Below, piece after piece: positions 44,331-61,713 of a DNA stretch of 64,000 nucleotides. The DNA lies in the NCBI GenBank assembly GCA_963758525.1, contig CAVWVQ010000003.1, positions 2,304,001-2,368,000 on the forward strand, read 5' to 3'. The stretch comes from an uncultured Phycisphaerales bacterium. GTDB taxonomy: Bacteria > Planctomycetota > Phycisphaerae > Tepidisphaerales > Tepidisphaeraceae. How positions within the stretch are numbered: position 1 is the stretch's first letter; each line of letters opens with the position of its first letter. Under the pieces are notes generated by a model, which was given only the letters and a program-made list of their open reading frames with translations, was not told the DNA's origin and did not search any database. Position numbers and translations under genes: made by a program.

Positions 44331-44391
44331 AGGCATATCCGGGCGCAGAATAAGGTCGTTACACCAGGTCGGGCGCGTACGAGCATTCATT

Positions 44392-45198
44392 ATGATTAAA
44401 AGACGTTGTCCGCGCACTGCGCCTGTTTGCCAGATTGAAAGTCTTGAGAATCGCACGTTCATGTCCGCCACCGTCGGCGCCATGGCCGCTGCGAAAAAAA
44501 CCGTCACGCCAACGACTGCGATTCAGGAGCAGTTCTCGCGTCACGTCGTGCGGCTCGGGCAGAATCTCACGATCAATGTGAAAGTTGGCGCCAAGGGAAG
44601 CGCGCCGGCAACCGGAACGGTTGAGCTGCTCAGCAAAGGAACGCCGATTACCACGCTGGACGGCCCGTTGACCTTGACGCTCAACGCCTCGGGCAGCGCG
44701 TCGTACACGTTCGCCGCGGGCAATCTCGAGTTCTTCAGCGGCATTTACTACGTGAAGGCGCAATATCTCGGCGATGCCACGCATCCGAGCGCGACGTCGA
44801 AGGTGCAGACGCTCTATGTCATCACGCCGCCATTTCGAAAAGACGGAAAGCAGGGGCTGGAGTTCTCGACCGTCAACAAAGGCAAGGGGGGCAAAGCCGT
44901 CGTCACGGGGGACACTGTGAACGTCGCCTATACCGGATTGCTGGCCAGCGACGGAACGATCTTCGACTATGCCACCGGGCATGGGGCCGGTTCCACCCCA
45001 TACCTTCAATACACGGTTGAGAGCCAGCCCGAGCAAGTCATCCCCGGCTTCGATGAAGGCACATTGGGGATGAAGATCGGCGAGACCCGCGTGATCTACA
45101 TTCCCTACGCCCTCGGCTACGGAAGCGAGGGTTCAGGGACCAGCATTCCCGCCTTCGCCGATCTGATTTTCATCGTGACGTTGCTGAAGATTATGTAG
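44392..45198 (+). CDS. Exported FKBP-type peptidyl-prolyl isomerase with an Ig-like domain
   Basis: LEPR-XLL-like IESLENRTFMS; YYVKAQYLGD; FKBP VIPGFDEG..GMKIGETR..IPYALGYG. Confidence 0.88.
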   Translation: MIKRRCPRTAPVCQIESLENRTFMSATVGAMAAAKKTVTPTTAIQEQFSRHVVRLGQNLTINVKVGAKGSAPATGTVELLSKGTPITTLDGPLTLTLNASGSASYTFAAGNLEFFSGIYYVKAQYLGDATHPSATSKVQTLYVITPPFRKDGKQGLEFSTVNKGKGGKAVVTGDTVNVAYTGLLASDGTIFDYATGHGAGSTPYLQYTVESQPEQVIPGFDEGTLGMKIGETRVIYIPYALGYGSEGSGTSIPAFADLIFIVTLLKIM

Positions 45199-45206
45199 GG
45201 ATGGGA

Positions 45207-45490
45207 AAGGCACGGGGGTACGAAGGGAGTAGGAAAGGCACGAAGGCACGGAGGTACGAAGGGAGTAGGAAAGGCACGAAGGCACTGAGGCACGAAGGCA
45301 CGGAGGCACGAAGGGTGAGGAAGGGGATTCTGTGATCAGAGCGAAGCGATAAAAATCCCATTCCTTCCCTTGGTGCCTCCGTGCCTTCGTGCCTTCGTGC
45401 CTTTCCTACTCCCTCCGTGCCTTCGTGCCTTTCCTAACCCCTTGGTGCCTTGGTGCCTTCCCAACTCTTTCCCACGATGCCTTGGTCCCT
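45207..45490. repeat. GGCACGAA octamer array with an inverted TTCGTGCC array
   Basis: aaggcacgaaggcacggaggtacgaagg ... ccttcgtgccttcgtgcc, around a ~50-nt spacer. Confidence 0.92.
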
Positions 45491-45516
45491 TTCCCGTTGT
45501 GGCCTACACTTCTCCC

Positions 45517-46191
45517 ATGGCTTCCATTCTCGTCATCGGCCCGCATCCCGACGACCAGGAGCTGGGCATGGGTGGTTCGATCGCCCGGCTGGTGCTGCAG
45601 CGTCATCGCGTGCATCTGATCGACATGACCAATGGCGAGCCGACGCCGCTGGGCACGCCGGAGAAGCGCGCCAGGGAGTCCGCCGACGCCGCGAAGATTC
45701 TTGGCGTCGGGCGGACGCTGATCGGTCTGCCCAACCGGGAGGTGGTGCATTCGGTGGAGGCGCGGCACAAGCTCGCCGCGGTCATCCGCGTGCATCGGCC
45801 CGATTGGATGTTCGTTCCCTATCCGGTTGATGCGCATCCCGATCACGTGGCTGTCACGCGCATTGCCGAGGACGCCCGCTTCGACGCGAAACTGAGCAAG
45901 TCGAGCATTCCCGGCGAGCCGTGTTATCCGAAGCGGATCATCTATTACTACTGCACGCACCTGCGGATGAATTTCGAGCCGACATTCTGCCTCGACGTCA
46001 CTGACCAGATCGAGACGAAGATCGCCGCCGTGAAGGCGTATGCTTCGCAGTTCGTGGAGAATAAAAGCCCGGTCGTGGAGATGGTGAAGACGCTCAACGG
46101 ATATTTCGGCGGACGAATCGGGACCGCGTATGCCGAGCCGTTTTTCACGCACGAGGCGCTGGGATTCGGCGGGCTGGATCAGTTGATCTGA
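45517..46191 (+). CDS. PIG-L family deacetylase (BshB1-like)
   Basis: GPHPDDQELG, TNGE, DAHPDH, AYASQF, YAEPF. Confidence 0.9.
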   Translation: MASILVIGPHPDDQELGMGGSIARLVLQRHRVHLIDMTNGEPTPLGTPEKRARESADAAKILGVGRTLIGLPNREVVHSVEARHKLAAVIRVHRPDWMFVPYPVDAHPDHVAVTRIAEDARFDAKLSKSSIPGEPCYPKRIIYYYCTHLRMNFEPTFCLDVTDQIETKIAAVKAYASQFVENKSPVVEMVKTLNGYFGGRIGTAYAEPFFTHEALGFGGLDQLI

Positions 46192-46192
46192 T

Positions 46193-46293
46193 CTGAAATC
46201 TCAAATTTGAAATTGAAAATTTGAAAGCGCGAGCGGTTGGATTTGATCGAAATCTCAAATTTGAAATGTGAACAGCTTTCTGAAATTTCAAAT
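46193..46293. repeat. AT-rich GAAATYT-type repeat tract
   Basis: gaaatctcaaatttgaaat occurs twice; ctgaaatttcaaat. Confidence 0.7.
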
Positions 46294-46359
46294 CGAACTG
46301 CGCCAGCATTTCCCAGCGTCCCAGTTCGATTCAGTGACGGCGTCGGCTAAGATGAAAGC

Positions 46360-46866
46360 ATGAGCGCCATGACGCTGATCAACATCCTCGCCCGCTGGCT
46401 TCACGTCATGACCGCCTGCGTGCTGATCGGCTGCGCGTTCTTCGCCTTCTTCCTGCTTCCCATCGCGCTGCGGGGTCTGGAGCCGGAGCGGCGGCTGGCA
46501 GCCCTACTGCAAGTGCGCCGCCCGCTCAAGATGGTGGTGCACGCTGGCGTACTCCTCCTGCTTCTGAGCGGCGCATATAACGCCGTCCGCAACTGGCACA
46601 TCTATAACCAGTGGCCCGGCATCACGCACGGAATCTTCGGCATCCACGTTCTGCTGGGTCTGGGTGTGATGACCCTGCAACTGATCGCGCTGGCGGGAAA
46701 GATACCTCGGCCATCGGCGGCGACGATGAGCCGATGGGCGTTGATCCTGGCGTTTCTGACCGTGCTTGCCGGGTCGACGCTCAAATGGGCCAGGGAACGC
46801 GCGCACGATCGTCCCAGCGTGCCGCCGGCGCGGGCAAGCTTTGATAACAAGCCGCATGGCGGATGA
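46360..46866 (+). CDS. Four-TM membrane protein (CopD/DUF4149-like)
   Basis: RWLHV, LLLSGAYN; four hydrophobic helices. Confidence 0.75.
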   Translation: MSAMTLINILARWLHVMTACVLIGCAFFAFFLLPIALRGLEPERRLAALLQVRRPLKMVVHAGVLLLLLSGAYNAVRNWHIYNQWPGITHGIFGIHVLLGLGVMTLQLIALAGKIPRPSAATMSRWALILAFLTVLAGSTLKWARERAHDRPSVPPARASFDNKPHGG

Positions 46867-47311
46867 GAGGATTGCATCTTCGCCGCCGCCGGAAGATGAA
46901 ATTCTTCCCGGGGTTCGCATTGCGCCAGCGGCGGTGCGCTTTCAGTTCGCCCGCAGCCGCGGGCCGGGGGGGCAGAACGTCAACAAGGTGAACAGCAAGG
47001 CCGAACTGTGGGTGCCGGTGAGCGCGATCCATGGATTAAGCGAACGAGCGATCGGCCGATTGCGCCGCATGGCCGGCAAACGGCTGACGGGGGTGGACGA
47101 GATTCATATTGCATCCGATACCGAGCGATCGCAGGAAGCCAATCGGCTCGCCGCGCTGGTTCGACTGCGCGTTCTCATCGTGACCGCGATGCACGAACCG
47201 AAGCCGCGCCGCAAGACCAAACCAACTCGCGCATCACAGCGCCGGCGAATCGAGTCCAAGCGACATCGCTCCCAGATCAAGTCCGGGCGCCGAGGGTCGG
47301 AGTCAGAGTGA
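46856..47311 (+). CDS. arfB: Alternative ribosome rescue factor (peptidyl-tRNA hydrolase)
   Basis: RSRGPGGQNVNKV, RSQEAN, basic tail RRKTKPTRASQRRR. Confidence 0.93.
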   Translation: MADERIASSPPPEDEILPGVRIAPAAVRFQFARSRGPGGQNVNKVNSKAELWVPVSAIHGLSERAIGRLRRMAGKRLTGVDEIHIASDTERSQEANRLAALVRLRVLIVTAMHEPKPRRKTKPTRASQRRRIESKRHRSQIKSGRRGSESE

Positions 47312-47413
47312 CGTGGTGCATCGCGATCTCCTGACTTCCGGAATTTGCCCGGCTACAATCCGGCCCCGGCGCCGCAACGGCAGCGCAATCTGGTTCCACC
47401 TGACGGAGAAACA

Positions 47414-48574
47414 ATGCATCGAAGCCTTCCCGTCCTGCTCGCTTCTGTGATCTGTTGCTTCAGTTGTACGCATGCTGCCGAACCCAGCCGGCCGACAACA
47501 CTGTCGACTACCCAGCCGGTGACCACGGTGACACCCCCGGCGACTCCCGCGCCGGCCACTCAGCCGGCCACGCAACCGCTGGCGGAACCGCCGCCGCCGA
47601 CGGCAGGGGCTTTGAAGGTCGGCGATGCCGCGCCGGCGCTGATGCCCGCCAAATGGATCAAGGGAGAGCCGGTCGAGCGATTGGAGAAGGGGAAGGTTTA
47701 CGTCGTAGAGTTCTGGGCCACATGGTGCGGCCCGTGCAGGCAGAGCATTCCGCACCTCACGGAGCTGGCGGCAAAATTCAAGGATATCACGTTCATCGGC
47801 CAGGATGTCTGGGAGCCGGATCTCACGACGGTCGAGCCCTTCGTCAAGGAAATGGGCGACAAGATGGACTACCACGTCGCGATAGATGACGCCGAGCATG
47901 GCAAGATGGATCAGGCGTGGATGGCCGCCGCCGGGCAGGAAGGGATTCCCACCGCGTTTGTCGTCGATAAGGACACGAAGATCGCGTGGATCGGTCATCC
48001 GATGGAGCTCGAGCCGGTGCTGACGGAGGTGACGGCCGGCACCTTCGATGCGCAAAAGTTTGCCGCAGTCAGCGCCGCGAAAGAGGCTGCGATGGCGAGA
48101 ATTCGCAAGGCCATGCAAGCCAATGATCCGAACCAGGTGCTCGCGGAAATCGATGCGATCTCCACGAGCGATCCGCAGATGGGCAGGCAACTCATCGGCC
48201 TGAGATATTCGATGCTGCTGCAGAAGAAAGACGTGCCCGCCGCGATGGTCGTGGCGAAACAAATGATCGCGGACTCCAATGATAATGCCGACAATCTGAA
48301 TCAAATCGCCTGGTCGATGGTCGACGCGGATCATCCGATCGACAAACCCGATTTATCGCTCGCCGAGCAGGCCGCGACGCGCACCAACGAGTTAGACAAG
48401 GGGAACGATCCGGTCATCCTCGATACGCTCGCCCACGTCTATGCGGCCGAAGGACATTTCGACAAGGCCGTGGCGACTGAAACGCAAGCTGTCGCCAAAA
48501 ACACTGACCCGCAGGCGAAGGGCGATTTCGCCAAGTCGCTCGATTCATTCATGGCGCAGGCCGGCAAGAAATGA
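47414..48574 (+). CDS. Exported TlpA/redoxin thiol-disulfide oxidoreductase with a TPR-like C-terminus
   Basis: EFWATWCGPC, GIPTAFVVD, WIGHP; LNQIAW..ILDTLA. Confidence 0.9.
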   Translation: MHRSLPVLLASVICCFSCTHAAEPSRPTTLSTTQPVTTVTPPATPAPATQPATQPLAEPPPPTAGALKVGDAAPALMPAKWIKGEPVERLEKGKVYVVEFWATWCGPCRQSIPHLTELAAKFKDITFIGQDVWEPDLTTVEPFVKEMGDKMDYHVAIDDAEHGKMDQAWMAAAGQEGIPTAFVVDKDTKIAWIGHPMELEPVLTEVTAGTFDAQKFAAVSAAKEAAMARIRKAMQANDPNQVLAEIDAISTSDPQMGRQLIGLRYSMLLQKKDVPAAMVVAKQMIADSNDNADNLNQIAWSMVDADHPIDKPDLSLAEQAATRTNELDKGNDPVILDTLAHVYAAEGHFDKAVATETQAVAKNTDPQAKGDFAKSLDSFMAQAGKK

Positions 48575-48599
48575 GCACCTCAATCGCCGCCGGTGGAGC

Positions 48600-49096
48600 G
48601 TGACTGCCGATCGCCCGCATCCACCGCCGCAGACGCGCGCCGCTTGCGCCGCGGACGCGCCGGAATCACGCGTATCGAGCACGTCAGTTTCGTCCATGCC
48701 GGGGAGCGCTTTGGGGAGAGGCGCGTTCGCTACCTGATCGGCTCGCCGCGCGCGATCGTGCGCGTTGCCGAACTGGATGGAAACCTGTTGGGCTGGATCG
48801 CGGGATTCGCCGTTCCCCGCTCTCCGCGGCCGTGGGGGCGCATCTACGCCCTGGCCGTTGATCCCGCCGCGCGCGGCAGGAAAATCGGACCGCTGCTGCT
48901 CCTCGAAATGATCGCATTGCTGCGCCAGCAGGGTGCGCGGCGAATCTTCCTGGAAGTCCGTCCCGACAATTACGCCGCACTCCGGCTCTACGAAAAATGC
49001 GGATTTGTCCGCTGCCGGCAATTGGAAAACTATTACGGACACGGGCATCCAGCCCTGCGGATGGCGCTGGAACCACCGCATCAAGGCCCTCGTTGA
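48600..49096 (+). CDS. RimI-like GNAT acetyltransferase (frameshift near 48665)
   Basis: YALAVDPAARGRKIG, LEVRPDN, LYEKCGF, NYY; N-terminus RAACAADAPE in the adjacent frame. Confidence 0.85.
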
Positions 49097-49213
49097 GATA
49101 AAGCCTCACAGGGAGCGGCTGATTTGAGGGTGATGCAGCCGACTTTGAGTGCGTTTCGCACCTCTTGAAAGATCCGAATCGAATTTCCGCGGTGCCACCC
49201 CCGCAATCACCGT

Positions 49214-49705
49214 TCAGCCCGTCATTGCCTTCTGCATGACCTTAATCAACTCATTGTCCTTTTCATCGAGATACGGCGTCAGATCCAGATCCCGCGGCAC
49301 TCTCGTCAGCTTGGCCGAGTCTGCGGTCTTGATCCACTGCTGCATGAACTTGTCGTAGTCCCGCCATTCGATACCCGCCGCCCGGACGGCTGCCTCTTCA
49401 GCGCGGAGCGCGATCTGATGAGCATGCTGATAGTGCAGTCCCCACGTATCGATCATCGCCTTCTCCGTCGCTTCGTGCAGTATCAAAAACTTATCCACGT
49501 AGTGCTGGCGGCCAAGATGGTCGGTGAAACAATGATGCAGATGTCGATCGATGTAAATTCGCGATCGATCGACGCTGTACCCGGCCAGATACGGAATGTC
49601 ATGATCCCGATCCAGCGTGACGCGTTTCGTGATCTCGGCGACGGAATGATCGAGCATCGCCGAGCTCACGAGGGTGTCGTTGGTGTTTTTGTGATGGCCG
49701 CTCAT
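49214..49705 (-). CDS. Hypothetical protein with an HExxE...HYxxAH motif
   Basis: GGAGG SD; DIPYLAGYS, IYIDR, LILHEATEK, HYQHAHQIA. Confidence 0.8.
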   Translation of the reverse strand: MSGHHKNTNDTLVSSAMLDHSVAEITKRVTLDRDHDIPYLAGYSVDRSRIYIDRHLHHCFTDHLGRQHYVDKFLILHEATEKAMIDTWGLHYQHAHQIALRAEEAAVRAAGIEWRDYDKFMQQWIKTADSAKLTRVPRDLDLTPYLDEKDNELIKVMQKAMTG

Positions 49706-49830
49706 GGAATGACCTCCGAATTCTGCGCGCCCGGTTCCTGGAGCACCGCCCGCCCGCGTTGCGAAGCGTGGAAAGTTTGCGACAATCACTTGATGATGTC
49801 GAGCAAGGAATGCCGCAGGTCGGAGGATGC

Positions 49831-52662
49831 ATGAAAAGCGAACGGATTCCGAGTCAGGGTGAACAGCAGTCGGCGGAGCTGAGAGGCGGAACGCAGGGCG
49901 TTGAAGCCGAAGTCCAGCGCCTGCTGAACGGCGGGAAATGCAAGCAGGCAGTCGAGCTGGCGAAAACTCATTACAAGCAGTTGGACACCGCCGAATCGCG
50001 GCACCTCCTGGTTCAAGCCTATCTGGCGCACATCGCGGAATTTCAGCACAAGGGAATGGCGGAGGAAGCCCAGACGCTCTTGTCGCTGGTTCTGCAGCGA
50101 TTTCCCTCGGAGCGGCAGCAACTGGAGAAGGTGGAGGTTGTCGCCGCCGCGACAGCGGGGCGGCTTGCGGACCTTCTGCGGCCGCTGACGTCGGAGCAAA
50201 CGTCGCCGGAGACTCGATCGTTGATCGAAGCGGCCGTGCGCCGGCATGTGAGGGATCTGCCTGCGCTGGCGGCGTGCGGCGCGCTTCCGCCGGAGCATCC
50301 GCTGCGGCTTGGAGCCGCGGCCATCTGGCGGGCGTTTTTAGCAGTCACCAGCGGTCCGGTGACCGACGCGGAGATCGAGTTGCCGGAGCTTTCGCGACGC
50401 AGCCCGCTGGCGGCGTGGAAAATGCTGATCCGGGCGATCTTCGCGTATTACCGCCACGACGATCCGGGATGCCTGCGGGCGCTTGACGCGATTCCCGCCG
50501 ACGCGGCAATTGCGAATATCGCAGCGGCGCTGCGGGCCATGGCCGAGGGAAAGAAGCCGGCGGCGGGAGTTGCCGCGGCTCTCTTCAATCGCGTGGTCAG
50601 CGCAGATCAGGGGCTCCTTGCGGCGATCACGCAGCTCGAATCCGCGTACGATTCCTACGACTTGTCTCATTTGCACGGATCGATCCGCCACGCGGTCCGG
50701 GCGTGCGCCCAATCACGGCCGGAGCTGCTCGATCGGTTTCGACAGCACATCTCGATGGGCTGCTTCCTTCGGGATGTCCCTTTCGCCGCAGTTGTGCCGG
50801 TGCTCGGGATCACGGTCAAGAACGCGTATTTCTGGAGATTGCTCGCCCGGGCGAGTGAAAGCCGCGGTTTCGAGTCGGGCGCCGCGATGTACTGGGAGAG
50901 GTTCCTGCGGCATGCCGTCGACGAGCAGATGTTCGCTGAATCGAGCATGGAAGCCGCAACGGTCTGGCTGCACATCGCGGAGCTGCTGTCGCGATTGTCG
51001 CCCTCTGAAATCGGTGCAGCCTGGGCAGCGTGGACCACCTCCGGCACGATCGTGGAGTATTACAACAATCAGCCGAAAGAGATCGCGGCCCTTCGCCCGA
51101 AATCGGTTGAGCAACTGGCAAACGACCTGCTCGAGCCGGGACGGCCGTTCCAGCGTGCAGCAGCCATTCGACCAGAGCTTGAGGTTTTCCAGCAATGGTG
51201 GAATTGGGCGGAGAAGTTCGATCTGCCGGCCAAGCAAATGGAAGACATCGCGCTGCAGTGGAATCGAAGCCGGCCGCGCGATGCCCGGCCGCTGGTGATC
51301 CTCTCGGCGCTGGCGGAGCAACGAAATGCACTTTCGCTGGCGCTCAAGCGGCTCGGGGATGCGGAGGCGATCGATCCCATGAATCATCAGGTTCGCCAGG
51401 CGCGGGTGCGCGTGACGCTGTCAATCGCATGGCGGCATTTTGCCGACGCAAAGAGCCACCTGGTTGAAAAGGATCTTGCGGATCTGGCTGCGATGCCTGG
51501 CATGAATGAAGGCGATCGCGGAGCGGTGCTGGAATCGATGCGGGGCGCCTGGCATGCATTGCGGGGAGATCATGCCGCGGCGGCCGCTGCGCTGAACTCC
51601 GTCATCGACCGCATGGGGGAGATCGCCGCGCCGGTCCTCCATGAGTCCATCCGCAAAATGGCCAAGCTGATTGACGAGAAGGAGCCGCTGGCCGTGTTGC
51701 GGATCGATGATGCTCCGCCGATCGAGTTCGTCCTGGCGTCGGCTCGTGTTTTGCGGATCGCCCATGATTTGAAACTGAAGCTGTGGCAGCCCACGGCGTG
51801 GACGCCGCTGGTTGGGGAAGTATTGCGGCAACGCCCCTGTCCGCTCAATGATTCTGATTTGCTGGTCCTGGGAAGGGAGGCAGCTTCTCAATCCCAGTGG
51901 GAAATCGCATACGCGGGATCTTCCGCGGGCCTGGAACGATCCGCCTCCCCGGCGAGCATCGCCCGCTTCCTGCTGCTGCGGGCGCGGACGCTCCATGCTT
52001 CCTGGCATACGCCGCGTACGACGCAATGCCTGCGCGCGGCGCTCGAACTGGCCAGGCAGGCTCACGACGACGAGCTGATTCGCGACGTGTTCGCGGCGAT
52101 CGATCGCGACCCGTTCACCCGGCGGATCATCGCCGGCTCGCGCAACGGGCAAGGCATGGCGGAAGAGGTTCTGCAGTTGGTTCTGAAAACCGAACAGCGA
52201 GCCACCAGCTTTCCCCGCAGCCCTTCCGACAGCGATTCGTTCGTTGTCGAAGCAGCCGAGCCGGAGATGCGCGGGCTGTTCGGCGCGTTCAACGATGATT
52301 CCGACTGGGATTCGGAGGACGAGGAGGGTGATTATTTCCATGATGATGATGATGATGACGACGAGGAGGCGGGGTTGTTTGACCTTGGTGCATCGCCCCC
52401 AAGCGCAGCGCCCTTCGAAGTTCACCCTCCTCCGAAGATAAACCCGCGCGGCCAGCCAACGCGCGGCGGCGGCGCGGAGCCGGACAATTTCCTCCCCGAC
52501 CCGACGAAAATCATCGAATCGATGGCCAACGCGATGGGGCACAAGGTCAGCCCGGCGGAGCTGCGGGCGATGGCGGATGAACTGAGAAATGCAATCGGCG
52601 GCGGCGGGATCCCTGGGCGCGGAACCGGCGGGCAATCGAAACGCAAGAAGCGGAGGCGATAG
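49831..52662 (+). CDS. Large alpha-helical/TPR-like protein (~943 aa), first gene of the Hsp70 operon
   Basis: GGAGG SD; helical A/L/R/W-rich repeats, acidic D/E tract, basic C-terminus. Confidence 0.82.
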   Translation: MKSERIPSQGEQQSAELRGGTQGVEAEVQRLLNGGKCKQAVELAKTHYKQLDTAESRHLLVQAYLAHIAEFQHKGMAEEAQTLLSLVLQRFPSERQQLEKVEVVAAATAGRLADLLRPLTSEQTSPETRSLIEAAVRRHVRDLPALAACGALPPEHPLRLGAAAIWRAFLAVTSGPVTDAEIELPELSRRSPLAAWKMLIRAIFAYYRHDDPGCLRALDAIPADAAIANIAAALRAMAEGKKPAAGVAAALFNRVVSADQGLLAAITQLESAYDSYDLSHLHGSIRHAVRACAQSRPELLDRFRQHISMGCFLRDVPFAAVVPVLGITVKNAYFWRLLARASESRGFESGAAMYWERFLRHAVDEQMFAESSMEAATVWLHIAELLSRLSPSEIGAAWAAWTTSGTIVEYYNNQPKEIAALRPKSVEQLANDLLEPGRPFQRAAAIRPELEVFQQWWNWAEKFDLPAKQMEDIALQWNRSRPRDARPLVILSALAEQRNALSLALKRLGDAEAIDPMNHQVRQARVRVTLSIAWRHFADAKSHLVEKDLADLAAMPGMNEGDRGAVLESMRGAWHALRGDHAAAAAALNSVIDRMGEIAAPVLHESIRKMAKLIDEKEPLAVLRIDDAPPIEFVLASARVLRIAHDLKLKLWQPTAWTPLVGEVLRQRPCPLNDSDLLVLGREAASQSQWEIAYAGSSAGLERSASPASIARFLLLRARTLHASWHTPRTTQCLRAALELARQAHDDELIRDVFAAIDRDPFTRRIIAGSRNGQGMAEEVLQLVLKTEQRATSFPRSPSDSDSFVVEAAEPEMRGLFGAFNDDSDWDSEDEEGDYFHDDDDDDDEEAGLFDLGASPPSAAPFEVHPPPKINPRGQPTRGGGAEPDNFLPDPTKIIESMANAMGHKVSPAELRAMADELRNAIGGGGIPGRGTGGQSKRKKRRR

Positions 52663-52664
52663 CG

Positions 52665-52985
52665 ATGGCTCTTGAGACAACGCCTTTCACCCTTGAACGC
52701 GCAGCCGCACTGCTCGGCGTGTCAGCAACAGCAGACGAGCAGGAGCTTCGATCGGCTTATCTCAAAAAGGTGCAGGAGCACCCGCCGGATCGTGATCCCG
52801 ATATCTTCGAGCAGATTCGCGACGCCTACGAGCAGATCCGTAACCCGGCCGTCCGCGCCAAGGCCATCCTCGAAGGGCCGAGCCCCTTTGCGCCGCTCGC
52901 TTCGTTGCTGGAGGGGTCGCAGCCGAAACGTGCGTTCGTCGGAAGCCAGCTTTGGATCGAGCTGCTCAAGGAGGGGTCGAAGTGA
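52665..52985 (+). CDS. Small J-domain protein (HPPD variant)
   Basis: LLGVSATADEQELRSAYLKKVQEHPPDRDPDIFEQIRDAYEQI. Confidence 0.88.
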   Translation: MALETTPFTLERAAALLGVSATADEQELRSAYLKKVQEHPPDRDPDIFEQIRDAYEQIRNPAVRAKAILEGPSPFAPLASLLEGSQPKRAFVGSQLWIELLKEGSK

Positions 52986-53832
52986 GCGTTGACGAAGCGG
53001 CCGCCGAATCGATCGCCAAGGCGATTCCTCCAGAAGCTGGCTCTGCAGCACAGACCTGTGCGCACGATCTCAAGACGCAATTGATGGCGCAGTTTGGGCA
53101 GTGGGTGGACCAGATGCTGGTCGACGAGCCAGCGCCCCGAGGAATCCCCGAGCGGTTTCTCGCCGACGCCGCGGAAACCGAAGCAAGCGCGACGGAGAGC
53201 GGCGCCGCTCAGTCAACCGATTTCTACACGCTGTTTTCAGGATTGACGGCCCTGACCGGAGAGATTCGCCTGCAGGGCGCACCTTCAAGCAACTCTCTGA
53301 GCTGCTTTCGCCGCTCGCGCAAACACCTGCAATGTTGGCGCAGCTCCGCGAAGCGCAGTTGGAATCGGCCGCGTCGCTGCAGGCGTTGCTCGAAGCTCAA
53401 GCAAATGAACCCGAGGAAGAACCGGTTCAGTTCAAGCAGGTGTGCGATGTGATGATCGACCTCTACGATCGCCTGCAACGGGGCGTGCAGACCTGCGATG
53501 AAGGAATTCATTCGCTCGGATCCCGCCGCGAGACCGGTCTGGTCGGGCGACTGCTCCACAACTCGGAGCCGCTCGAGCAGGCAATCCGATCGGTGCAGGG
53601 AATTCGAGAGGCGAATGCGATGACCCTGGCGCGGCTTCAGGCGGCGTTGCAGGAATGGAGCGTTCAGAGAATTGGGACGGTTGGAGAACCATTCGACCCC
53701 GAGCGGATGACCGCCATTGAGGTGCGCGCCGCCGGCGACGCCAAGCCCGGCAGCGTGCTGGTTGTCAATCGCAGCGGATATGCATTGAATGGAGTATTGA
53801 AGTCCACTGCACAGGTGACAGTGAGCAAGTAG
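52982..53832 (+). CDS. GrpE-like nucleotide exchange factor (frameshift near 53278)
   Basis: C-terminus VGEPFDPERMTAI..GSVLVVNRSGY..AQVTV; GTGA overlap with the J gene. Confidence 0.85.
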
Positions 53833-53849
53833 AAACAGGAGATGAGCAG

Positions 53850-55670
53850 ATGGCTGAGGGATCAGAAGTTGTCGTTGGAATCGACTTGGGAACCACCAAC
53901 TCGGAGATTGCGGCATTCGTCGATGGCAAAGCGCAGGTCATCGGCAACGGCCCGCGTTTGATGCTGCCGAGTTGCGTCGGTCTCTCGCCGGCCGGGGAAC
54001 TGTTGATCGGCGACTCGGCGCGCAATCAGATGCTGCTCTATCCTGATCGCACCGTGAAAAGCGTCAAGCGGCTGATGGGCAGCAATCAGTCGGTGACGCT
54101 GGGCGATCGCACCTTCACCCCTTCGGAGATCTCGGCGGTCATCCTGCGCGAACTGGTCCGCTGGGCGGGAATTCGCCTGGGCACGCCTGTCAAGAAGGCC
54201 GTCATCACCGTGCCCGCTTATTTTTCGGACGCGCAGCGCAACGCAACCCGCGAGGCGGGCGAACTGGCGGGGCTTGAAGTCGTCCGCATGATCAACGAGC
54301 CGACCGCCGCGAGCCTCGCGTACGGGCTCGATTCCAGCGGCAGCCGAACCGTCATGATCTACGACCTGGGCGGCGGGACGCTCGATGTCTCCATCGTCCG
54401 CATCGACGGAGAAGTGACCGAAGTCCTCGCCAGCCACGGCAACAATCATCTCGGAGGTGACGACTTCGACCAGAAGCTGGTGGATCACCTGGTCGAGCTG
54501 TTTCGCAAGCAGCACGGCATCGACCTGCGCGACCAAAACCCCGGCGCGTATGCCCGCCTCTGGTGGGCGGCCGAAGCGGCGAAAAAGCAGCTCAGCTTCG
54601 AGCCGTACGCGACGGTGCGCGAGGAGTCTCTTGTCGTCGTCGACGGACGCCCGCTGAGCCTGGAAGCGGAAATTGCGCGCGGGGAATACGAAGCGATGAT
54701 TCGGCCGCTGCTGGAACAGACGATCGATAGCGCGAGCCGGGCGCTGACCGATGCAGGCCTGGTCCCCGGCGCGCTGGACGAAATCCTGCTGGTCGGCGGC
54801 TCAACCCGCACGCCGATGGTCCTGCAATTGCTCGAATCGTTGTGCCACAAAGCGCCCCGGCAGGATCTTCATCCGGACCTTTGCGTCGCCCTGGGCGCCG
54901 GCGTGCTGGCCGGCCGGCTCGCGGGGCATGACATCCAGCGCGTGCTGGTGGACGTGTCCCCATTTTCGTTCGGCCCCAGTTACCTGGGCGAGCGGGATGG
55001 CTTTGGCTATCCGCATTGTTATCAGCCCATCATCAAGCGCAACACCCCGCTGCCCGTCACCCGCACCGACGAATATTGCACCGCCGCCGATTTTCAGACC
55101 GCGGTTGAGCTCGATATCTACCAGGGCGACGATCCCGACGCGCTGCGAAACGTGCACATCGGCCAGTTCCGCATCGAGGGCCTGCAGCCGGTGGACGGCC
55201 CCAACACGGTGCTCTGCCGGATGCGGCTCGACCTGGACGGGATCCTGCACGTCACCGCCATCGAAAAGAAGACGGGATTGAGCAAGCACGTGAAGATCAC
55301 CGGAGCGACGCTCAGGCGCGATGCCGCCGACATCACCCGCAGCAGAGACGAACTCGACCGCCTCTTTGCAACCAGGGCTGATGATCTCTCCGTCGAGGTT
55401 GAAGACGAAGAAAGCGAGGCGGAGATTTCAGAATCCGGCGATGCTCCGGTTGCGGAAGTTTCCGCGCCGCAGAACCAGGGCGCCGACGAAGCGCAACGGC
55501 TGATCGAACGATGCCGCGCCAAGATGCCCTCCATGCACGACGAGGATCGCGAAGAGGCCGTCAATTTCATCGAGGCGATCACCTCCGCCCGGCAAGGCAG
55601 CGACACGGTCGCCCTGGAAGAATCCTGCAAGGCCCTCAGCGAGTTCCTCTTCTTTATTGAGGGAAAATGA
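53850..55670 (+). CDS. Hsp70/DnaK paralog (606 aa)
   Basis: GIDLGTTNS, ITVPAYF, NEPTAA, YDLGGGTLDVS, LGGDDFD, LVGGSTR, linker VLVDVSP. Confidence 0.95.
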   Translation: MAEGSEVVVGIDLGTTNSEIAAFVDGKAQVIGNGPRLMLPSCVGLSPAGELLIGDSARNQMLLYPDRTVKSVKRLMGSNQSVTLGDRTFTPSEISAVILRELVRWAGIRLGTPVKKAVITVPAYFSDAQRNATREAGELAGLEVVRMINEPTAASLAYGLDSSGSRTVMIYDLGGGTLDVSIVRIDGEVTEVLASHGNNHLGGDDFDQKLVDHLVELFRKQHGIDLRDQNPGAYARLWWAAEAAKKQLSFEPYATVREESLVVVDGRPLSLEAEIARGEYEAMIRPLLEQTIDSASRALTDAGLVPGALDEILLVGGSTRTPMVLQLLESLCHKAPRQDLHPDLCVALGAGVLAGRLAGHDIQRVLVDVSPFSFGPSYLGERDGFGYPHCYQPIIKRNTPLPVTRTDEYCTAADFQTAVELDIYQGDDPDALRNVHIGQFRIEGLQPVDGPNTVLCRMRLDLDGILHVTAIEKKTGLSKHVKITGATLRRDAADITRSRDELDRLFATRADDLSVEVEDEESEAEISESGDAPVAEVSAPQNQGADEAQRLIERCRAKMPSMHDEDREEAVNFIEAITSARQGSDTVALEESCKALSEFLFFIEGK

Positions 55671-56437
55671 CGGCGCCGGCATCATCCCAGCCCGGTGGGG
55701 TATCGTTGGCACTGAAATGCCCCGTCTGCGCCGCGGGCTTTCGCGGCGTTGAGATTTGTCCGCGCTGCGGGACCAACCTCGAGCCTCTCATGCAAATCGC
55801 CGGCAGCGCCTGGGCATTGCGACAGAGAGCGCGGGCGAAGCTTCGGGCCGGCGACCTCGACGCGGCGCTGCGTTCTTTCGACGTGGGCTGGAAGCTCCAA
55901 CATCAGGGGCAGCCTGTTTCCAGCCTCAGACGCATCGCTGAAAACGAAACCAGGAAGCACGGGCAAGCGGCTCAGGCTGATCGCCGCGACCCAGAAATCG
56001 CTCCATGCATCTCGGCGGGGAGCACGATCAGTTCAAACGGACAATCTGCCGAACCCCGCCAGCGGGAATCGGTGCCAGACCGAACGGGAGAATCAGAATC
56101 GCGCGCCGATTCTGCCGCTGCGCATCCAGCGCATCTCGTCAGCCCCGGCAGTGCCGATGACAGGCGGCCAATCGGGACGCCCTGGCTGTTTGGGATTGCA
56201 CTCGCAGCGCCCGCTCTTTGCCTGATTACGTATTTGCTGATAGCGCGACGAACGCCAGGGGCTCATAATGCAACCGGCGATTGGGCGGCCCTGCTGATGG
56301 TGCTTGCGGTCGGGACAGCCGTCTATTGGAGAGGCAGCGATGGGCGAAGGCCGCCCTCCGCCGCCATAGCCATGTACGTTTTATCGCAGGCGCTGTGGCT
56401 CGCCGTGGTTGGCTTGATGTTCGCAGCGCGGCAATGA
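55667..56437 (+). CDS. Zn-ribbon plus helical domain, with three C-terminal TM helices
   Basis: CPVC..CPRCGTNL; ATGA overlap with the Hsp70 gene. Confidence 0.72.
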   Translation: MTAPASSQPGGVSLALKCPVCAAGFRGVEICPRCGTNLEPLMQIAGSAWALRQRARAKLRAGDLDAALRSFDVGWKLQHQGQPVSSLRRIAENETRKHGQAAQADRRDPEIAPCISAGSTISSNGQSAEPRQRESVPDRTGESESRADSAAAHPAHLVSPGSADDRRPIGTPWLFGIALAAPALCLITYLLIARRTPGAHNATGDWAALLMVLAVGTAVYWRGSDGRRPPSAAIAMYVLSQALWLAVVGLMFAARQ

Positions 56438-56591
56438 GCGCCTTGGGCACCGAGCCGGGGAGGTCGCAAAGGCGAATGAAAACACCGGGGAAGTGGATAT
56501 CCGTAATGCACGCTGTTGGACGCGCTGCGCTACTACCAAACGACAGGTGACCAAGGCGCTCTCGAGTGCATACCCCCCGACTTGGCCTCGG

Positions 56592-58138
56592 CTACGCCTC
56601 GTTCGGCTGATACTCGAACCAATCGAAATGCGCCGCAGTGTCGCTGCGCTCACCGCGAGCCGTCGCGTACATTCCGAGAATCACCCCGACGTAGCCCCCG
56701 GCTACTTCCGTCGAAAGGTATCTGGTTTCGTGCCGTCCCAGATCGAACTTTCGGCCGGATGCGTTGGTCAGTGAAAAAGTGTACCAATCACGATCGATCG
56801 CGATGGAAAGCGTGACAGGCCCGTCGCCGATCGGGTCAGAGACGTTGCTCAGGACGGCCGTGCCGATCCGGCGGCGAACGATCGCGACGCGCTTGCCGCC
56901 ACGCAACGTGATGGCGGCTTCGCTGTGATGCGAATCGCTCTGATAGACGGTGACGCCCGCCTCTTCGGTTTCTGATTGTGGAGCGAAATCGACGAGCGTT
57001 GAAACGGTCGCTACGAAATGCTGCTGCCGCCGGCCGAGAAAGGCAGGGCTTTCCAGGTCATCCAGGGTCGAAGCGGCGCATCGCAGCGTCAGCCAACCGG
57101 GACGCTGCGAGAGCGACCAATTTTCACTCAGCGGATTGCGAAGAAACATCCACTGAAGCCTTGGCCGCGTCGAGGCGAAGTCTTCGCGCACGGATCAACC
57201 GGCCACGGATGCGCGACAGGCAGGTTCTCCACTTCCATTTCCGGCGCCATTCGGTGGCCGCCGTTGACGACGGGCCATCCATCGGCGGTCCAGGTCACCG
57301 GCGCGAGAAATGTCTCACGACCCAGGTTGGACCAAAATCCGCCGGGGAAACGAACTCCCAGAAAAACCGCCCACCAATTTCCGCTGGGGTCTTCCACGAA
57401 ATCAGCATGTCCCGTGGATTGGATCAGCGTCTGCAGGCTGCGATGCGTGAGAATCGGATTGTGCGGGCACGACTCGAACGGGCCGTAAGGGGTGCGCGAA
57501 CGCGCGATCGTCTCCATGTGACCGCGTTCGGTGCCGCCCTCGGCGGCCATGAGATAGTAATAGTCGCCGCGTTTGAACAAATGAGGCGCTTCGACATATG
57601 CGCCGCCGGTTCCGGTCCAGAGAAAAACCGTGTCGTTGAGCTGCTCGCCGGTGCTGATGTCAATTTCACACTGATACAGCCCTCGCGAATGAGCCCACGC
57701 GGTGCCGTTGCTCGTGAAATAGGTTTTGCCGTTCTCGAAATAGAGGGATGGATCGATGCCGCGCTGCTTGACCCAGATCGGCTCCGACCATTCGCCGGCG
57801 GGATCATCCGTGGAGACGTAGAAATTGCCCCCGTCGACGACGCGTCCGTCCACCTGCCGGCCGACGTTCGTCGTGACCATCCAGAACCGGCCGTTGTGGT
57901 AGCGAATCGTCGGAGCGAAAATCCCGCCGGAGCTGGGCGCCCTCTCGAGAAAGAGCTGGCTTTTGCGCGTCAGGCAATGTCCGATCTGACGCCAATTGAC
58001 CAGGTCGCGGCTGTGGTAGATCGGCACGCCGGGGAAATATTCGAAGCTGCTGGTGACGAGGTAGTAGTCCTCCCCGACCCGGCAGATGCTCGGATCGGGA
58101 TTGAAGCCGCGGATAATCGGGTTCTTGAGTTTCATCAT
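56592..58138 (-). CDS. GH43 beta-xylosidase/arabinofuranosidase with a C-terminal ConA-like domain (frameshift near 57190)
   Basis: NPIIRGFNPDPSICR, SSFEYFPG, FAPTIRY, IDP, EAPH, GHAD, LGRET; LGRRQQH. Confidence 0.93.
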
Positions 58139-58142
58139 CGCT

Positions 58143-59716
58143 CTATTTTTCAAGAGACCAGTCATCGGTGCGGAATGGCGATGCCGGAAGATCCGCCTTG
58201 TTGAACAGATTCACGTCCGGCATGTTCGCCCATCCGAAGCGGACCGCTGCCGGATTTGGAACCGCATCGCTCGTGACAACGACAGTTTCCCCATCGATCG
58301 CAGCCGTTGCGGGAACGAATTTCCGGTCTTCCCCCGCAATGGTGAAGCCTTTGAGTGCGCCTCCCTTGGCAACGAGTCCTCCGCCCAAATGGGTGAATGA
58401 AAGGATCGCACGGCTTCCCTCGAATTTGACTGACTCGATGAGCGGGCCAGAGTATTCGATCTTTTCCCCATAGGCCAGCACCGCGCCGCCAGCGCGAGTC
58501 GCGCTCCGACCGGCTCCTTCTGCGGCGGGTGAATGTTTTCAGACCCGTGGTCGGTGATGACGACCATCGCGGTTTGGGGCGTCTTCTTCCAGGTCAGGAG
58601 CTGCGCCTCGCGAAGCTGCGGAGACATCGTCGGCTGCGGCGCAATCTGAACGAACAGGAACGGAAAATCCCCTTCGCCCCAGGCCTTGCGCCAGTCGGCG
58701 ATCAGCGCGGGAAAGAGCGTGCGGTACAGCGCCGCCTGTCCATTGTTCGATTCGCCCTGGTACCAGATGACGCCGCGCATCGCGTAAGGTTCCAGCGGCG
58801 CGATCATCGCGTTGTACAGCGTCGTCGGCCCCGCTCCGGTGGGATTTGCCGGCGCGGCCGGAGCGCGCGGCGCTGGCTTGCCTTCCTGCTTCGCCTTCTC
58901 CACGGCCGCCTCATAGTCCTTCATCAGCTCGGCCTTCTGCTGCTTAAATTGCTCGAGCTTCGCGGGATAATCCTTGATCGCCTGCTCGTGTGCCGCCAGA
59001 AGCGCCGCAAGCCGCGGGTCCGCCTCCAAGCCCGCGCGGCTCGTCCAATCCTCGGCGACCGTGCCTCCGACAGAAGTGTGTATCAATCCAATCGGAATAT
59101 TGAGCGCTCGATAGAGATCCCGGCCGAAGAAATACCCAACGGCGGTGAAGTTGGCGACCGTCTCCGGAGAGCAGACCACCCAGTCACCCTTTACTTCCGA
59201 AAGCGGCGACGCCGATCGGCGATGCTCCACGGTGAAGCAGCGAATCTGCGGGTAGTTCGCTTCGGCTACGTGCTTCTCCCAGTCTTCTATCAATGGCTGC
59301 GGCGGGCGCGGTCCCAGTTGCCGCTCCATGTTCGACTGTCCGCTGCAGATCCAAACCTCGCCCACCAGCACGTCGTCGAGCGTAACGGTGTTTTCGCCCT
59401 TGATCGTCATTGTGAACGGCCCGCCCGCCGCGATCGGCTTGAGCCGCACCGTCCACTTTCCCTCTTTCGCTGTCGTCGATGCCGTCTGCCCCGCGAAGTC
59501 CACCTCGATCTGTTCGCCCTCATTCGCCGAACCCCAGACAGGCACCTCCATACCCTGCTGAATGACGGCGTGACTCACGAACAAGCTCCCGGGAACGACC
59601 TTCCCGTGCGCCATCCCTCCAGTCACCAGCAGCAGCAGCGCCAAACTGCGCAGCAGGGTATCCGGTGCAACAATTCGGTTCTCACGCGCTACGGCAGTGC
59701 GATGCCAAGATATCAC
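58143..59716 (-). CDS. Sialate O-acetylesterase (SASA/SGNH) family esterase (frameshift near 58482; start uncertain)
   Basis: GEVWICSGQSNM, WYQGESN, IHP, PASPFRTD. Confidence 0.92.
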
Positions 59717-59853
59717 TGAGATTCCTCCATTAGGATCCGTAGGTTACCATCTTTCTTTTTGCTTTGGTCACTCCGGTCGCCGCCACATGCCAATCACCCG
59801 CGCCCTACCTCTTATCCCAACTATCTGCATAATAGACTACAGGAAGGAACGCC

Positions 59854-60522
59854 ATGGCAAATCTGAACTCGGTTTTGAACGAACGAATCGCTCGACTTTC
59901 CCGCAAGGAAATTAAATCACAGACCGGCCCGGCGCGCCGACTGGTGCTGCAGCATCGCCGGGACATTGCCGTCCTCAAGCGCATCGTCGGAGCCCTGCAG
60001 AAACGTCTCGCCAGCGTCGAGAAGGTCGCGACGAAAGTCGTTGGCAGCGAGCCGGCGCCGCAGTTGCCCGACAAAACCAGGTTCCGCGTTGACGGGTTGA
60101 TTGCCCATCGCAAGCGCCTCGAACTTTCCGCCGAGAACTATGGAAAGCTCGTGGGGGTCACTGGGCTGACTGTTTACGCCTGGGAGTCCAGAAAGTCGCG
60201 CCCGCGCGACGCACAGCTTGCCAAACTGTTCAGCATCCGCGGAATCGGCAAGCGCGAAGCTGAACGGCGCCTGGAGTTGCTGGGCGCCAAGCCCGGCTCC
60301 CGCCGCGCCGGGCGCAGCGCCGCCGGGCAGACCGCCGAGGAGTTCGTTCGCGAGCTGCTCAAGACCAAATCCGCCACCACCAGCAGCCAGATCAACATCG
60401 CCTGGAAATCCAGCGGCCGCCCCGGGAACGCCGACAACACCCTGAGCCTGATGACCCGCGCCGGAAAGCTCCGCCGCGAAAAGCTCAAAGACGGGCGCGG
60501 AAGCAGCTACAGCGTGAAGTGA
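59854..60522 (+). CDS. Coiled-coil plus XRE HTH protein with an extra C-terminal winged-helix-like domain
   Basis: RKRLELSAENYGKLVGVTGLTVYAWESRKSRPR. Confidence 0.82.
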   Translation: MANLNSVLNERIARLSRKEIKSQTGPARRLVLQHRRDIAVLKRIVGALQKRLASVEKVATKVVGSEPAPQLPDKTRFRVDGLIAHRKRLELSAENYGKLVGVTGLTVYAWESRKSRPRDAQLAKLFSIRGIGKREAERRLELLGAKPGSRRAGRSAAGQTAEEFVRELLKTKSATTSSQINIAWKSSGRPGNADNTLSLMTRAGKLRREKLKDGRGSSYSVK

Positions 60523-60548
60523 GCGACCAATCCCGTGTTATCGGACTA

Positions 60549-60590
60549 TACCCTTATTACTACCCTTATTAGAGGGTATATACCCTTATT
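60549..60590. repeat. Three TACCCTTATT direct repeats with one inverted unit
   Basis: Copies at 60549, 60561 and 60581; agggta at 60573. Confidence 0.75.
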
Positions 60591-61635
60591 CGCCGACACG
60601 CTCCCAGCGTGCCCCCGCGCCGTGTCCGAACGACCGTAACTCATTATTAGCCTTCATTTTCCGCAGCAAGGTGCGGATCCAATCGCGACCGACACCGGGA
60701 CACGCTGACTCAAGGTCGGCAACCCGGAAACTGCCCGCCTGTCGCCCGATCGCGTCACGGATCATGGCGGCCTTGGCTCCCATCGGTTCGGCCGTATCCC
60801 CCACCCGCCGCTCGAATTCCACATACGCCTGCTTGAGAATCCACAGCGTATAGTTCACGAACGGCCACGGATTATGCTGGCCCTCATGCCATCCAACGGA
60901 GCTTTGCTGCAACGTCTCATAGTAGCGCTCCTTGTTCTGCTCGATTACACGTTCCAGGCTGATATATCTGCCCACCTCCGCGCCTGAGTGATAGCACAAC
61001 AGGAGCATCAGCAGCCGCGACGTTCGCCCATTCCCGTCTCGAAACGGATGGATGCACAGAAAGTCCAGGACAACTCCTGCCATCAGCACCAGTGGGCTGA
61101 TCCGCCGGTCTTCGACGAGCTCGCGATGCCGGCTCACCAGTTCCGCGATCGCCGCCTCGGTCGCCCCACCTGCTTCCACCGGCATGAAACGCACGCGGTC
61201 CGGCTGGCCCGGCCGCCGTTCGATAATCGGATCGCTACGCTGCTTATATTGGCCTGCATCCCAGATGTCGCCCCGAATCAACCGATGCAACCGGAGTATC
61301 GTTTCCTCATTCATTGCCAGCTGCGCGCACCGAGGAGTGGATCAGATCCAAGGCCAGCCGATATCCGTTCACCTCCTCCTCATCTCGGTCTCTAAATGCG
61401 GGCGCGCCGAACACCAGTGTCCCCAGCCGGCTTGCGTCTACCTCCACCCCCTCGATTCGGTTTGAGGACTGCGCGCTTTCGATCAGCGCGTGTTCGCGCA
61501 GCGCCGCCAGCTTCTGGGGGGACTGCGCGCAAATAACTCCTGCATTCCCACGGCGCGTCCGAGTTCCTCCACCGACCAGGTGGTTCCCACCGGTACAGTC
61601 GCGCCGTCGTTTGACCATTGCCGAAGCGTCATCAT
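60586..61635 (-). CDS. Fic-family protein (two frameshifts, near 61527 and 61325)
   Basis: Canonical HPFRDGNGRTSR; IESAQSSNRIEG; N-terminus MMTLRQW..GMQELF read manually. Confidence 0.87.
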
Positions 61636-61713
61636 TCAGAAAGCTTCCTCTCGCCGCTACGAGTATCACAGTGCGATAGTCCCGTACACCCCTGCACGCC
61701 TCCCCGCATGTCC

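Follow-up and report, generated by a model that had tools for sequence, protein, structure and literature searches.

A conserved five-gene Hsp70 cassette in a planctomycete genome, similar to the HscC system and separate from it, with a J-like protein that lacks the HPD histidine

Beside the housekeeping DnaK-DnaJ-GrpE system, bacteria may carry specialised Hsp70s. The closest to the present case is Escherichia coli HscC, encoded in the cluster ybeQ-ybeR-djlB-ybeT-ybeU-djlC-hscC, which provides cadmium and ultraviolet (UV) resistance by an unknown route (PMC8215388). Others are HscA with HscB in iron-sulphur cluster assembly and the Hsp70/GrpE theme of the predicted GAP1-N2 conflict systems (Kaur et al. 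2020, PMC7159879). Here, we analysed a window of 64,000 nucleotides from an uncultured Phycisphaerales bacterium of the Tepidisphaeraceae (contig CAVWVQ010000003.1; all positions below are those of the window), in which a cassette of five genes at 49831-56437 encodes a giant tetratricopeptide repeat (TPR) protein, a J-like protein, a GrpE, an Hsp70 and a Zn-ribbon protein. Judged from its sequence, the cassette is a real and conserved specialised Hsp70 system, which resembles HscC-DjlB/C and is not a member of it. Its Hsp70 subfamily is apparently undescribed, and no description of the five-gene cassette was found in the literature covered by our search, outside which lay most subscription papers and all supplements.

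All five genes lie on the plus strand and are joined, in order, by a 2-nt gap, a GTGA overlap, a 17-nt gap and an ATGA overlap. These four junctions were all checked and agree exactly with the original prediction, a note made from the letters of this stretch alone. The cassette has the following parts:

49831..52662, plus strand: 943-aa giant with a TPR-like solenoid (AlphaFold2 model, TPR fold matches, homologues in TPR families)
52276..52659, plus strand: C-terminal end of the giant, with acidic linker, helical mini-domain and basic tail (model and homologue comparison)
52665..52985, plus strand: 106-aa J-like protein with a DjlB/DjlC-type short loop and PPD for HPD (PF00226)
52782..52790, plus strand: residues 40-42 of the J-like protein, PPD where HPD is expected (register against DnaJ)
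52982..53832, plus strand: GrpE-like exchange factor with an N-terminal extension, frame broken near 53275-53278 (PF01025)
53850..55670, plus strand: 606-aa Hsp70, a separate subfamily beside HscC (PF00012, residue table, trees)
54963..55031, plus strand: loop L1,2 of the Hsp70, above the substrate cleft, with 8 residues more than DnaK has
55667..56437, plus strand: 256-aa protein with a Zn-ribbon, a TPR-like hairpin and a hydrophobic membrane tail (invariant Cys, profile, hydrophobic windows)

Pfam matches above cut-off were obtained for DnaJ, GrpE and HSP70; gene 5 gave weak zinc-ribbon matches only, and the giant none. The guanine-plus-cytosine content of the cassette is level with that of the window. 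Elsewhere in the genome (6.47 Mb, 6 contigs, 91% complete, 6% contamination) there are a canonical DnaK (845 bits, 57% identical to E. coli DnaK), one GrpE and two DnaJ genes, which bears out the earlier view that the cassette is not the housekeeping operon.

Each of the known systems resembles the cassette in part. DnaK-DnaJ-GrpE has the same full triad of Hsp70, J-domain protein and GrpE, with conserved catalytic and allosteric residues, whereas the cassette Hsp70 is 35-37% identical to DnaK with an altered cleft and no C-tail, its J-like protein lacks the HPD motif and the G/F and client domains of DnaJ, and CIRCE or sigma-32 enrichment is absent. HscA-HscB shares a dedicated Hsp70, a private J-protein and a narrowed client range; however, the cassette has no isc genes as conserved neighbours and uses GrpE, and HscA groups with DnaK. 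The GAP1-N2 theme also contains operonic Hsp70 and GrpE, DnaJ/TPR modules and zinc ribbons, yet it is built on DO-GTPases, GAP1 and FNIII and occurs mainly in actinobacteria and firmicutes (PMC7159879). No DO-GTPase, GAP1 or FNIII family was recurrent beside the cassette in 81 loci or in the flank scan described below. HscC, a specialised Hsp70 beside DnaK, comes nearest: both have a deletion at 76-101 of the nucleotide-binding domain (NBD), the D211-loop deletion, an L1,2 insertion (4-8 residues are given for HscC, and the cassette has 8) and an altered lid helix B, and both systems have a short-loop J-domain with Leu at K26, repeat-protein neighbours and sporadic spread (PMC8215388). On the other hand, the cassette Hsp70 retains the GrpE loop and the K55-E267 pair, in which it differs from both HscA and HscC (PMC8215388), and it has a GrpE of its own, as HscC does not. 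Its J-like protein has about 105 aa and PPD, compared with 475-483 aa and HPE in DjlB/DjlC, and an 800-1000-aa TPR giant and a Zn-ribbon protein are added. HscC, DnaK, HscA and GAP1-N2 all differ from the cassette, in keeping with the original prediction, which knew of no characterised system of this arrangement. The Hsp70-like domains of CoCoNuT were also considered and rejected as a match; they are McrBC-linked, and their description does not mention GrpE or DnaJ (PMC11090510).

Synteny was assessed in the best 80 of 280 Hsp70-related places among species-level genomes, with loci in Planctomycetota, Acidobacteriota, Myxococcota, Desulfobacterota, Methylococcales, Thiotrichales/Beggiatoales and Magnetococcales (Proteobacteria included); the closest named relatives in this set are Tepidisphaerales planctomycetes. 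A neighbourhood survey had been suggested with the original prediction, and the flanking genes proved to be syntenic elsewhere: the order giant-J-GrpE-Hsp70-Zn was found at 53 of the 57 loci with enough flank, and a 54th (L008), mis-sorted through frameshifts, has all five genes in order. Hsp70-Zn stood alone at 3/57. The Zn-ribbon gene directly follows Hsp70 at all 78 testable loci, and GrpE adjoins Hsp70 at 64 of 69. Where Hsp70-Zn was isolated, the giant was located elsewhere in the genome (5/5) with the J gene behind it (5/5), and GrpE lay within the short flank of giant+J in 1/5. The cassette splits into two modules, giant+J and Hsp70+Zn, both of which are kept; because the giant+J pair persists where Hsp70+Zn lie apart, all parts are co-retained as two modules. 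Across 52 loci, the five parts have correlated pairwise identities (0.79-0.91), as expected for joint inheritance; shared ancestry alone explains much of this correlation. There was no sixth conserved family, none being present in more than 13 of 81 loci. In genome surveys, the giant was found in 4/36 genomes of the same family and 8/300 of the phylum, in 28/50 genomes of the family to which a Thioploca genome belongs and in 47/121 of the order that includes a Methylobacter genome, either as one gene or in split pieces; these counts are lower bounds because the genomes are incomplete.

Several loci show local variation. Across Thiotrichaceae (L037, L038, L044, L054, L074 and L079), the cassette occupies a fixed site beside the petABC operon, a sign of long vertical residence. 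In L067 (8585-9898), a 437-aa transporter-like gene lies between GrpE and Hsp70, and the other cassette genes are all kept. A Parabeggiatoa record (L063, 3926-11752) has a 2608-aa open reading frame (ORF) in which two nonribosomal peptide synthetase modules (condensation, adenylation, carrier) are in frame with the cassette Hsp70, by chance read-through, misassembly or true fusion. A basal variant in L139 (1026-5591, genome G086) has the order GrpE-Hsp70-TPR (575 aa)-J (PPE) and adjoins a 1215-aa kinase-like gene; no Zn-ribbon match was obtained in it.

The window Hsp70 matches PF00012 with 448 bits and fails the NCBIfam cut-offs for DnaK (476 vs 648 bits) and HscA. In a residue table of 76 Hsp70s (5/81 were dropped: 2 frameshifted, 1 truncated and 2 without the anchor motif), the nucleotide-binding and catalytic residues D8, K70, E171, D194, T199 and D201 are invariant, so that the ATPase motifs are indeed intact, and R151, R167, D393 and P419 are invariant as well. 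The allosteric network and the linker (P143, R151, R167, D393 and a hydrophobic linker, RVLVD in the window copy) are also kept. The insertion noticed earlier behind the linker turned out to be exactly 8 residues in loop L1,2, which has 23 residues in 76/76 cassette Hsp70s compared with 15 in DnaK and 19 in HscC. I401 and E402 are replaced; taken with the insertion, this means that the arch over the substrate has been rebuilt. An acidic insert, variable in length, breaks lid helix B, and the chain stops straight after a conserved hydrophobic helix without a disordered C-tail. Of the two NBD deletions, that of 76-101 lies in lobe I, and that of the D211 loop is also present in the genome's own DnaK and is therefore not diagnostic of HscC. 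The GrpE loop (290-295) is of full length in 72/76 and the K55-E267 pair is present in 76/76.

In a first quick tree the branches of HscA and HscC were long, and 9 HscC sequences were added for a second one. In the resulting 49-row quick tree (10 HscC rows, midpoint root, support by the Shimodaira-Hasegawa-like approximate likelihood ratio test (SH-aLRT) only, no bootstrap), DnaK, HscC and the Hsp70s of the cassette each make up a supported group (SH-aLRT 99-100). The cassette Hsp70s are a clade of their own beside HscC (99 vs 100) and outside DnaK, and HscA groups with DnaK in both trees; the tree check proposed earlier did not place the window protein with canonical DnaK, nor is it the only Hsp70 of its genome. 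Three Hsp70s retrieved by an HscC search fell inside the cassette clade, each with genes for J, GrpE and Zn-ribbon proteins nearby; in the one that was followed further, the giant is present too. Near a more basal Hsp70 (L120) lie genes for GrpE, J and a weakly related TPR protein, arranged differently. Planctomycete cassette Hsp70s fall at several places in the tree, as with transfer.

The J-like proteins have about 100-110 aa, including a C-terminal extension of about 40 aa. The window copy matches PF00226 with 31.5 bits (cut-off 27.8), the profile matches DnaJ 1BQZ (E 5e-12), and the register was set against E. coli DnaJ. In this register the position of the HPD His is occupied by Pro in 64/65 proteins and Ser in 1/65, and the motif is PPD or PPE. 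The description of the window protein as an HPPD J-protein was a misreading: the H of 'HPPD' is position 32, one place before the HPD His, and is kept in 14/65, and the HPD His itself is absent in 65/65. Other positions are retained (P34 invariant; D35 as D/E in 64/65; R22 as K/R in 65/65; F47) or changed (K26 to L/M in 65/65; K48 to Q/E in 58/65). On the Hsp70 side, E206 has given way to other residues, D211 is missing and D477 survives in only 10/76, and the J-contacts R167 and P419 (invariant) and E217 (75/76) remain. Because interface residues have been lost on both sides together and others kept, the J-like protein and the Hsp70 are probably a co-evolved private pair, whose activity is predicted. 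The short helix II-III loop and Leu26 are of the DjlB/DjlC type, and no canonical J gene travels with the cassette among the conserved neighbours of 81 loci. Downstream of true planctomycete HscC genes (9 loci), the 6/6 J-domains found (L110, L112-L116) have R/K for the HPD His (RPD, KPE), so His-less J-domains appear to extend through the HscC branch. Sequences without HPD were removed from a large J-domain census (PMC10410713).

Gene 5 has a core of CxxC-x9-CxxC and one TPR-like hairpin, about the first 80 aa of the window copy. The four Cys are invariant in 75 rows, and the profile matches consensus TPR proteins. Relatives have 69-182 aa, apart from a frameshifted copy of 248. In the window protein the core is followed by a linker and by hydrophobic windows at residues 169-177 and 233, a segment found in this protein only among 79 (0/78 others); the full 256-aa form occurs in three close metagenomic relatives (P0230-P0232, 40-54% identity). 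The membrane tail is real and lineage-specific. An assembly fusion was considered and dropped, since the three full-length relatives carry the tail; the tail alone as query gave no relatives. The predicted Zn-ribbon/membrane protein therefore stands for the window and these relatives and not for the 78 other cassette copies, and a membrane anchor as a core part gives way to local accretion. Hep1/Zim17 of the mitochondrial import motor is a zinc-finger Hsp70 escort, and gene 5 resembles it by analogy, as a small zinc protein tied to one Hsp70; of 66 families for the Zn-ribbon alignment, the 25 listed do not include zf-DNL.

The giant was correctly anticipated to be helical: its AlphaFold2 model (117 sequences) is all-helical (mean predicted local distance difference test score (pLDDT) 88, predicted template modelling score 0.71), with a TPR-like solenoid at about 20-815, a disordered acidic stretch at 816-887, a small helical domain at 888-923 and a basic tail, disordered at 924-943. 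No Pfam, NCBIfam or PADLOC match was obtained. The best fold matches are TPR proteins (VIA, Z 11.7, root-mean-square deviation 11.9, 261 aligned), and fold searches gave generic TPR matches only (template modelling score <=0.19 by query). In the ESM Atlas it falls with unnamed clusters and TPR families, and 21/24 gammaproteobacterial homologues match TPR families. Planctomycete/acidobacterial and gammaproteobacterial giants are homologous (673 columns at 99.85%), and clusters at 50% identity contained 645 relatives at E<=1e-30. Of the cassette parts the giant changes fastest (mean identity 27.5%), and no catalytic motif is conspicuous among its invariant residues. An STI1/DP identity of the mini-domain, as in Hip/Sti1/SGTA-type co-chaperones, gained no support: the tail model (pLDDT 66, three helices) had a best Z of 4.8 and no STI1 protein was listed.

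Two further observations concern the giants. A CxCxxC cluster, a possible metal site missing from the window giant, lies in the acidic tail of the giants of L014, L015, L018, L020, L022 and L035 and of 99/261 homologues. Shorter and more divergent homologues, with frames of about 590-650 aa, are present in genomes of 2.1-2.7 Mb (G412, G434, G438, G458 and G461).

A self-contained Hsp70 unit is well supported because of synteny, the separate clade, the co-divergence of the five parts and their retention when the operon splits. To this extent the 'complete private chaperone cycle' of the original prediction holds as a self-contained, non-housekeeping unit, which would turn over as a cycle. A private cycle insulated from DnaK is probable. 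We favour, with somewhat less than even confidence, the reading that the five proteins form one private remodelling cycle, insulated from DnaK, which would act on a DNA-bound protein complex. In this cycle, the TPR giant, paired with the J-like protein, would select the client and present it, and the tail of the giant (basic in this copy, and of clamp type or resembling SSB elsewhere; SSB, single-stranded DNA-binding protein) would position it on nucleic acid or at replication/repair sites. The PPD J-domain would then trigger ATP hydrolysis in its cognate Hsp70 only, the remodelled Hsp70 cleft would grip a narrow set of peptides, and the private GrpE would release ADP and client. The Zn-ribbon/TPR protein probably serves as a fixed Hsp70 partner, in the window lineage also tied to the membrane.

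That the client is DNA-associated is a tentative part of this reading and comes from the C-termini of the giants. Among 261 homologues longer than 780 aa, de-duplicated by their last 60 residues, 20 have a terminal QxxLF, 27 an acidic-PF end and 51 a PF end of whatever kind; the C-terminal end is basic in 164, and 200 have a basic stretch at one end or the other; an acidic tract (at least 10 D/E in 20 residues) is present in 176. The acidic-PF end resembles the consensus of the SSB tail. One giant (P0207) has both QxxLF and acidic-PF in tandem. The motifs are scattered across the giant tree, in which the supported FastTree branches force at least 6 (QxxLF) and at least 8 (acidic-PF) changes. 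The corresponding background counts were 1 QxxLF, 1 acidic-PF, 10 PF and 195 basic ends in 2504 long frames of the genome, and 0, 1, 3 and 24 in 453 neighbouring ORFs, two backgrounds that include spurious frames and lack matching for disordered tails. The general consensus for clamp binding is QxxLF (PMC12309361).

Besides these backgrounds, several points weigh against the preferred reading. As many as 190/261 giants, including the window copy and the examined Tepidisphaerales relatives, have neither QxxLF nor a PF end; the window giant has a basic tail only and no terminal QxxLF, and the DNA link is a family-level hint rather than a property shown for the window locus. Clamp binding is weak for some QxxLF peptides (PMC12309361). 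DNA-metabolism genes are absent from the conserved neighbourhood of the cassette. H33 bonds the Hsp70 linker, and its replacement abolished stimulation in every system tested, according to reviews (PMC8215388, PMC13254874); the J-like protein may therefore not trigger its cognate Hsp70. The GrpE gene is broken in this assembly, with no read across the break. There was no LexA box in 54 upstream regions. In these regions none of the LexA, CIRCE, sigma-32, sigma-54, Fnr and Fur patterns, taken from consensus sequences, was enriched, and the region of the window itself gave one loose Fur-like match. No sigma-70-like promoter, no excess of terminators and, in window 44000-64000, no Rfam match were found. 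The suggested stress response did not gain from this survey, which revealed no heat-shock or SOS operator.

A private cycle could also serve an HscC-like purpose, by folding, assembling or switching a client other than DNA-bound complexes, such as membrane or stress proteins or the giant itself, with tails that serve generic docking or are of low complexity. HscC as the nearest known clade, the shared deletions and L1,2 insert (PMC8215388), the DjlB/DjlC-type J-domain, the membrane tail of the window lineage and the many giants without replisome-type motifs are all consistent with it. However, 78 other Zn-ribbon proteins have no membrane segment, CIRCE is absent and sigma-32-like sites are near chance (4/35 vs 2.0 in shuffled sequences; 0/19), and the repeated QxxLF and acidic-PF ends would be left unexplained; we consider such a purpose unlikely, though worth keeping in mind. 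It might be, too, that the J-like protein is a pseudo-J scaffold which only links the giant to the complex, the Hsp70 being switched by the client, the Zn-ribbon protein or an ordinary DnaJ. By analogy, Pam16 of the mitochondrial import motor is likewise a J-domain without HPD, and type IV J-proteins are presumed to lack the capacity for Hsp70 stimulation (PMC13254874); the complete loss of the His, and the J gene staying with the giant and not with Hsp70 when the operon splits, point the same way. Against this, the other J-domain positions and Hsp70 contacts listed above (P34, D35, R22 and F47; R167 and P419) are kept, no canonical J gene accompanies the cassette, and the DnaJ-binding acidic patch is partly lost from the cassette Hsp70, which argues against an ordinary DnaJ. 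A pseudo-J role is improbable on this evidence.

Anti-phage defence had also been suggested, and in such a conflict system the giant would sense an invader protein, perhaps with its clamp- or SSB-like tail as bait, and the Hsp70 would assemble or dismantle a complex. The patchy spread in the family and phylum (4/36 and 8/300), the several tree places of the planctomycete copies, the fast change of the giant and the occurrence of Hsp70 with GrpE in one predicted conflict theme (PMC7159879) are in its favour. However, no nuclease, toxin or other effector domain was detected in any of the five proteins (Pfam, NCBIfam, PADLOC), PADLOC 2.0 (library from 2023) gave 0 families at E<=0.1, and no match was found in plasmids, phages or viral contigs. 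The giant is single-copy in two gammaproteobacterial groups (47/121 and 28/50 genomes), including genomes of 2-3 Mb. When the nearest flanking ORFs of 40 loci were scanned (148 ORFs, called simply as the longest; 9/157 dropped for size), 13/148 had a PADLOC match at E<=1e-5, mostly kinases, cyclases, GTPases and WD40 repeats, and full-length defence-type neighbours occurred at about 4/40 loci, both counts standing without a control. Neighbours are mostly housekeeping genes, typically mutS, purD, petAB, serS, trpF, rnhA, coaE and guaB. Anti-phage defence thus has little support, and we regard a conflict role as quite unlikely. Lastly, the frame switch in GrpE near 53275-53278 might be real and the cassette decaying in this genome. 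GrpE family membership, including the C-terminal beta domain, stands (PF01025, 54 bits on the second piece, cut-off 25.8; a conserved alignment of 64 cassette sequences), but in this assembly the gene is not a single open frame: compared with the intact GrpEs of L007 and L012, it matches in frame 2 as far as 53278 and in frame 1 from 53275 onwards. Two DNA runs gave no read over this break or over the Zn-ribbon/tail junction. On the other hand, GrpE is a single ORF in short-read relatives, both halves are still 46-48% identical to an intact relative, and the other four cassette genes are open. The window gene is one base short in a G run relative to same-genus G002, itself frameshift-rich, and three more window genes are split and one base short: a glycosyltransferase-like gene (43090-44330), a GH43 xylosidase (56592-58165) and an esterase-like gene (58143-59716). 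In one of these genes, an additional G at 57189 is present in a contig of an independent run (one contig, depth 4). It is likely that the assembly carries many single-base deletions and that the GrpE frameshift is an assembly error; decay is very unlikely.

The HPD His has been held indispensable for Hsp70 activation, and here a whole subfamily has Pro, with matched changes on the Hsp70 side. Such His-less pairs would be a natural and testable case of J-Hsp70 pairs turning private and a candidate orthogonal chaperone set, and with the cassette comes an Hsp70 subfamily, apparently undescribed, whose inventory of five parts is defined. The cassette is present in genome-sequenced methanotrophs (Methylobacter, Methylomonas and Methylotuvimicrobium), in which knock-out is feasible. 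If the tails bind clamp or SSB partners, a dedicated chaperone would be linked to the replication or repair of DNA, which may help to understand the still unexplained UV resistance that HscC confers. More boldly, and doubtful as a whole, the cassette could rank as the fourth Hsp70 system of bacteria, next to DnaK, HscA and HscC: an orthogonal one in which a His-less J-protein activates its own Hsp70 only and the giant docks at the replisome through swappable tails (clamp motif, SSB-tail mimic or basic end), dismantling or resetting DNA-bound complexes.

Two neighbouring regions of the window were also noted. Upstream of the giant, a small divergent gene (49214-49720, minus strand) with a HEATE (HExxE) metalloprotease-like motif has no Pfam match and is not conserved next to the cassette. 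A gene for a helix-turn-helix-like protein (59854-60522, plus strand) and an apparently split Fic-domain gene (60586-61669, minus strand) lie 3-5 kb downstream.

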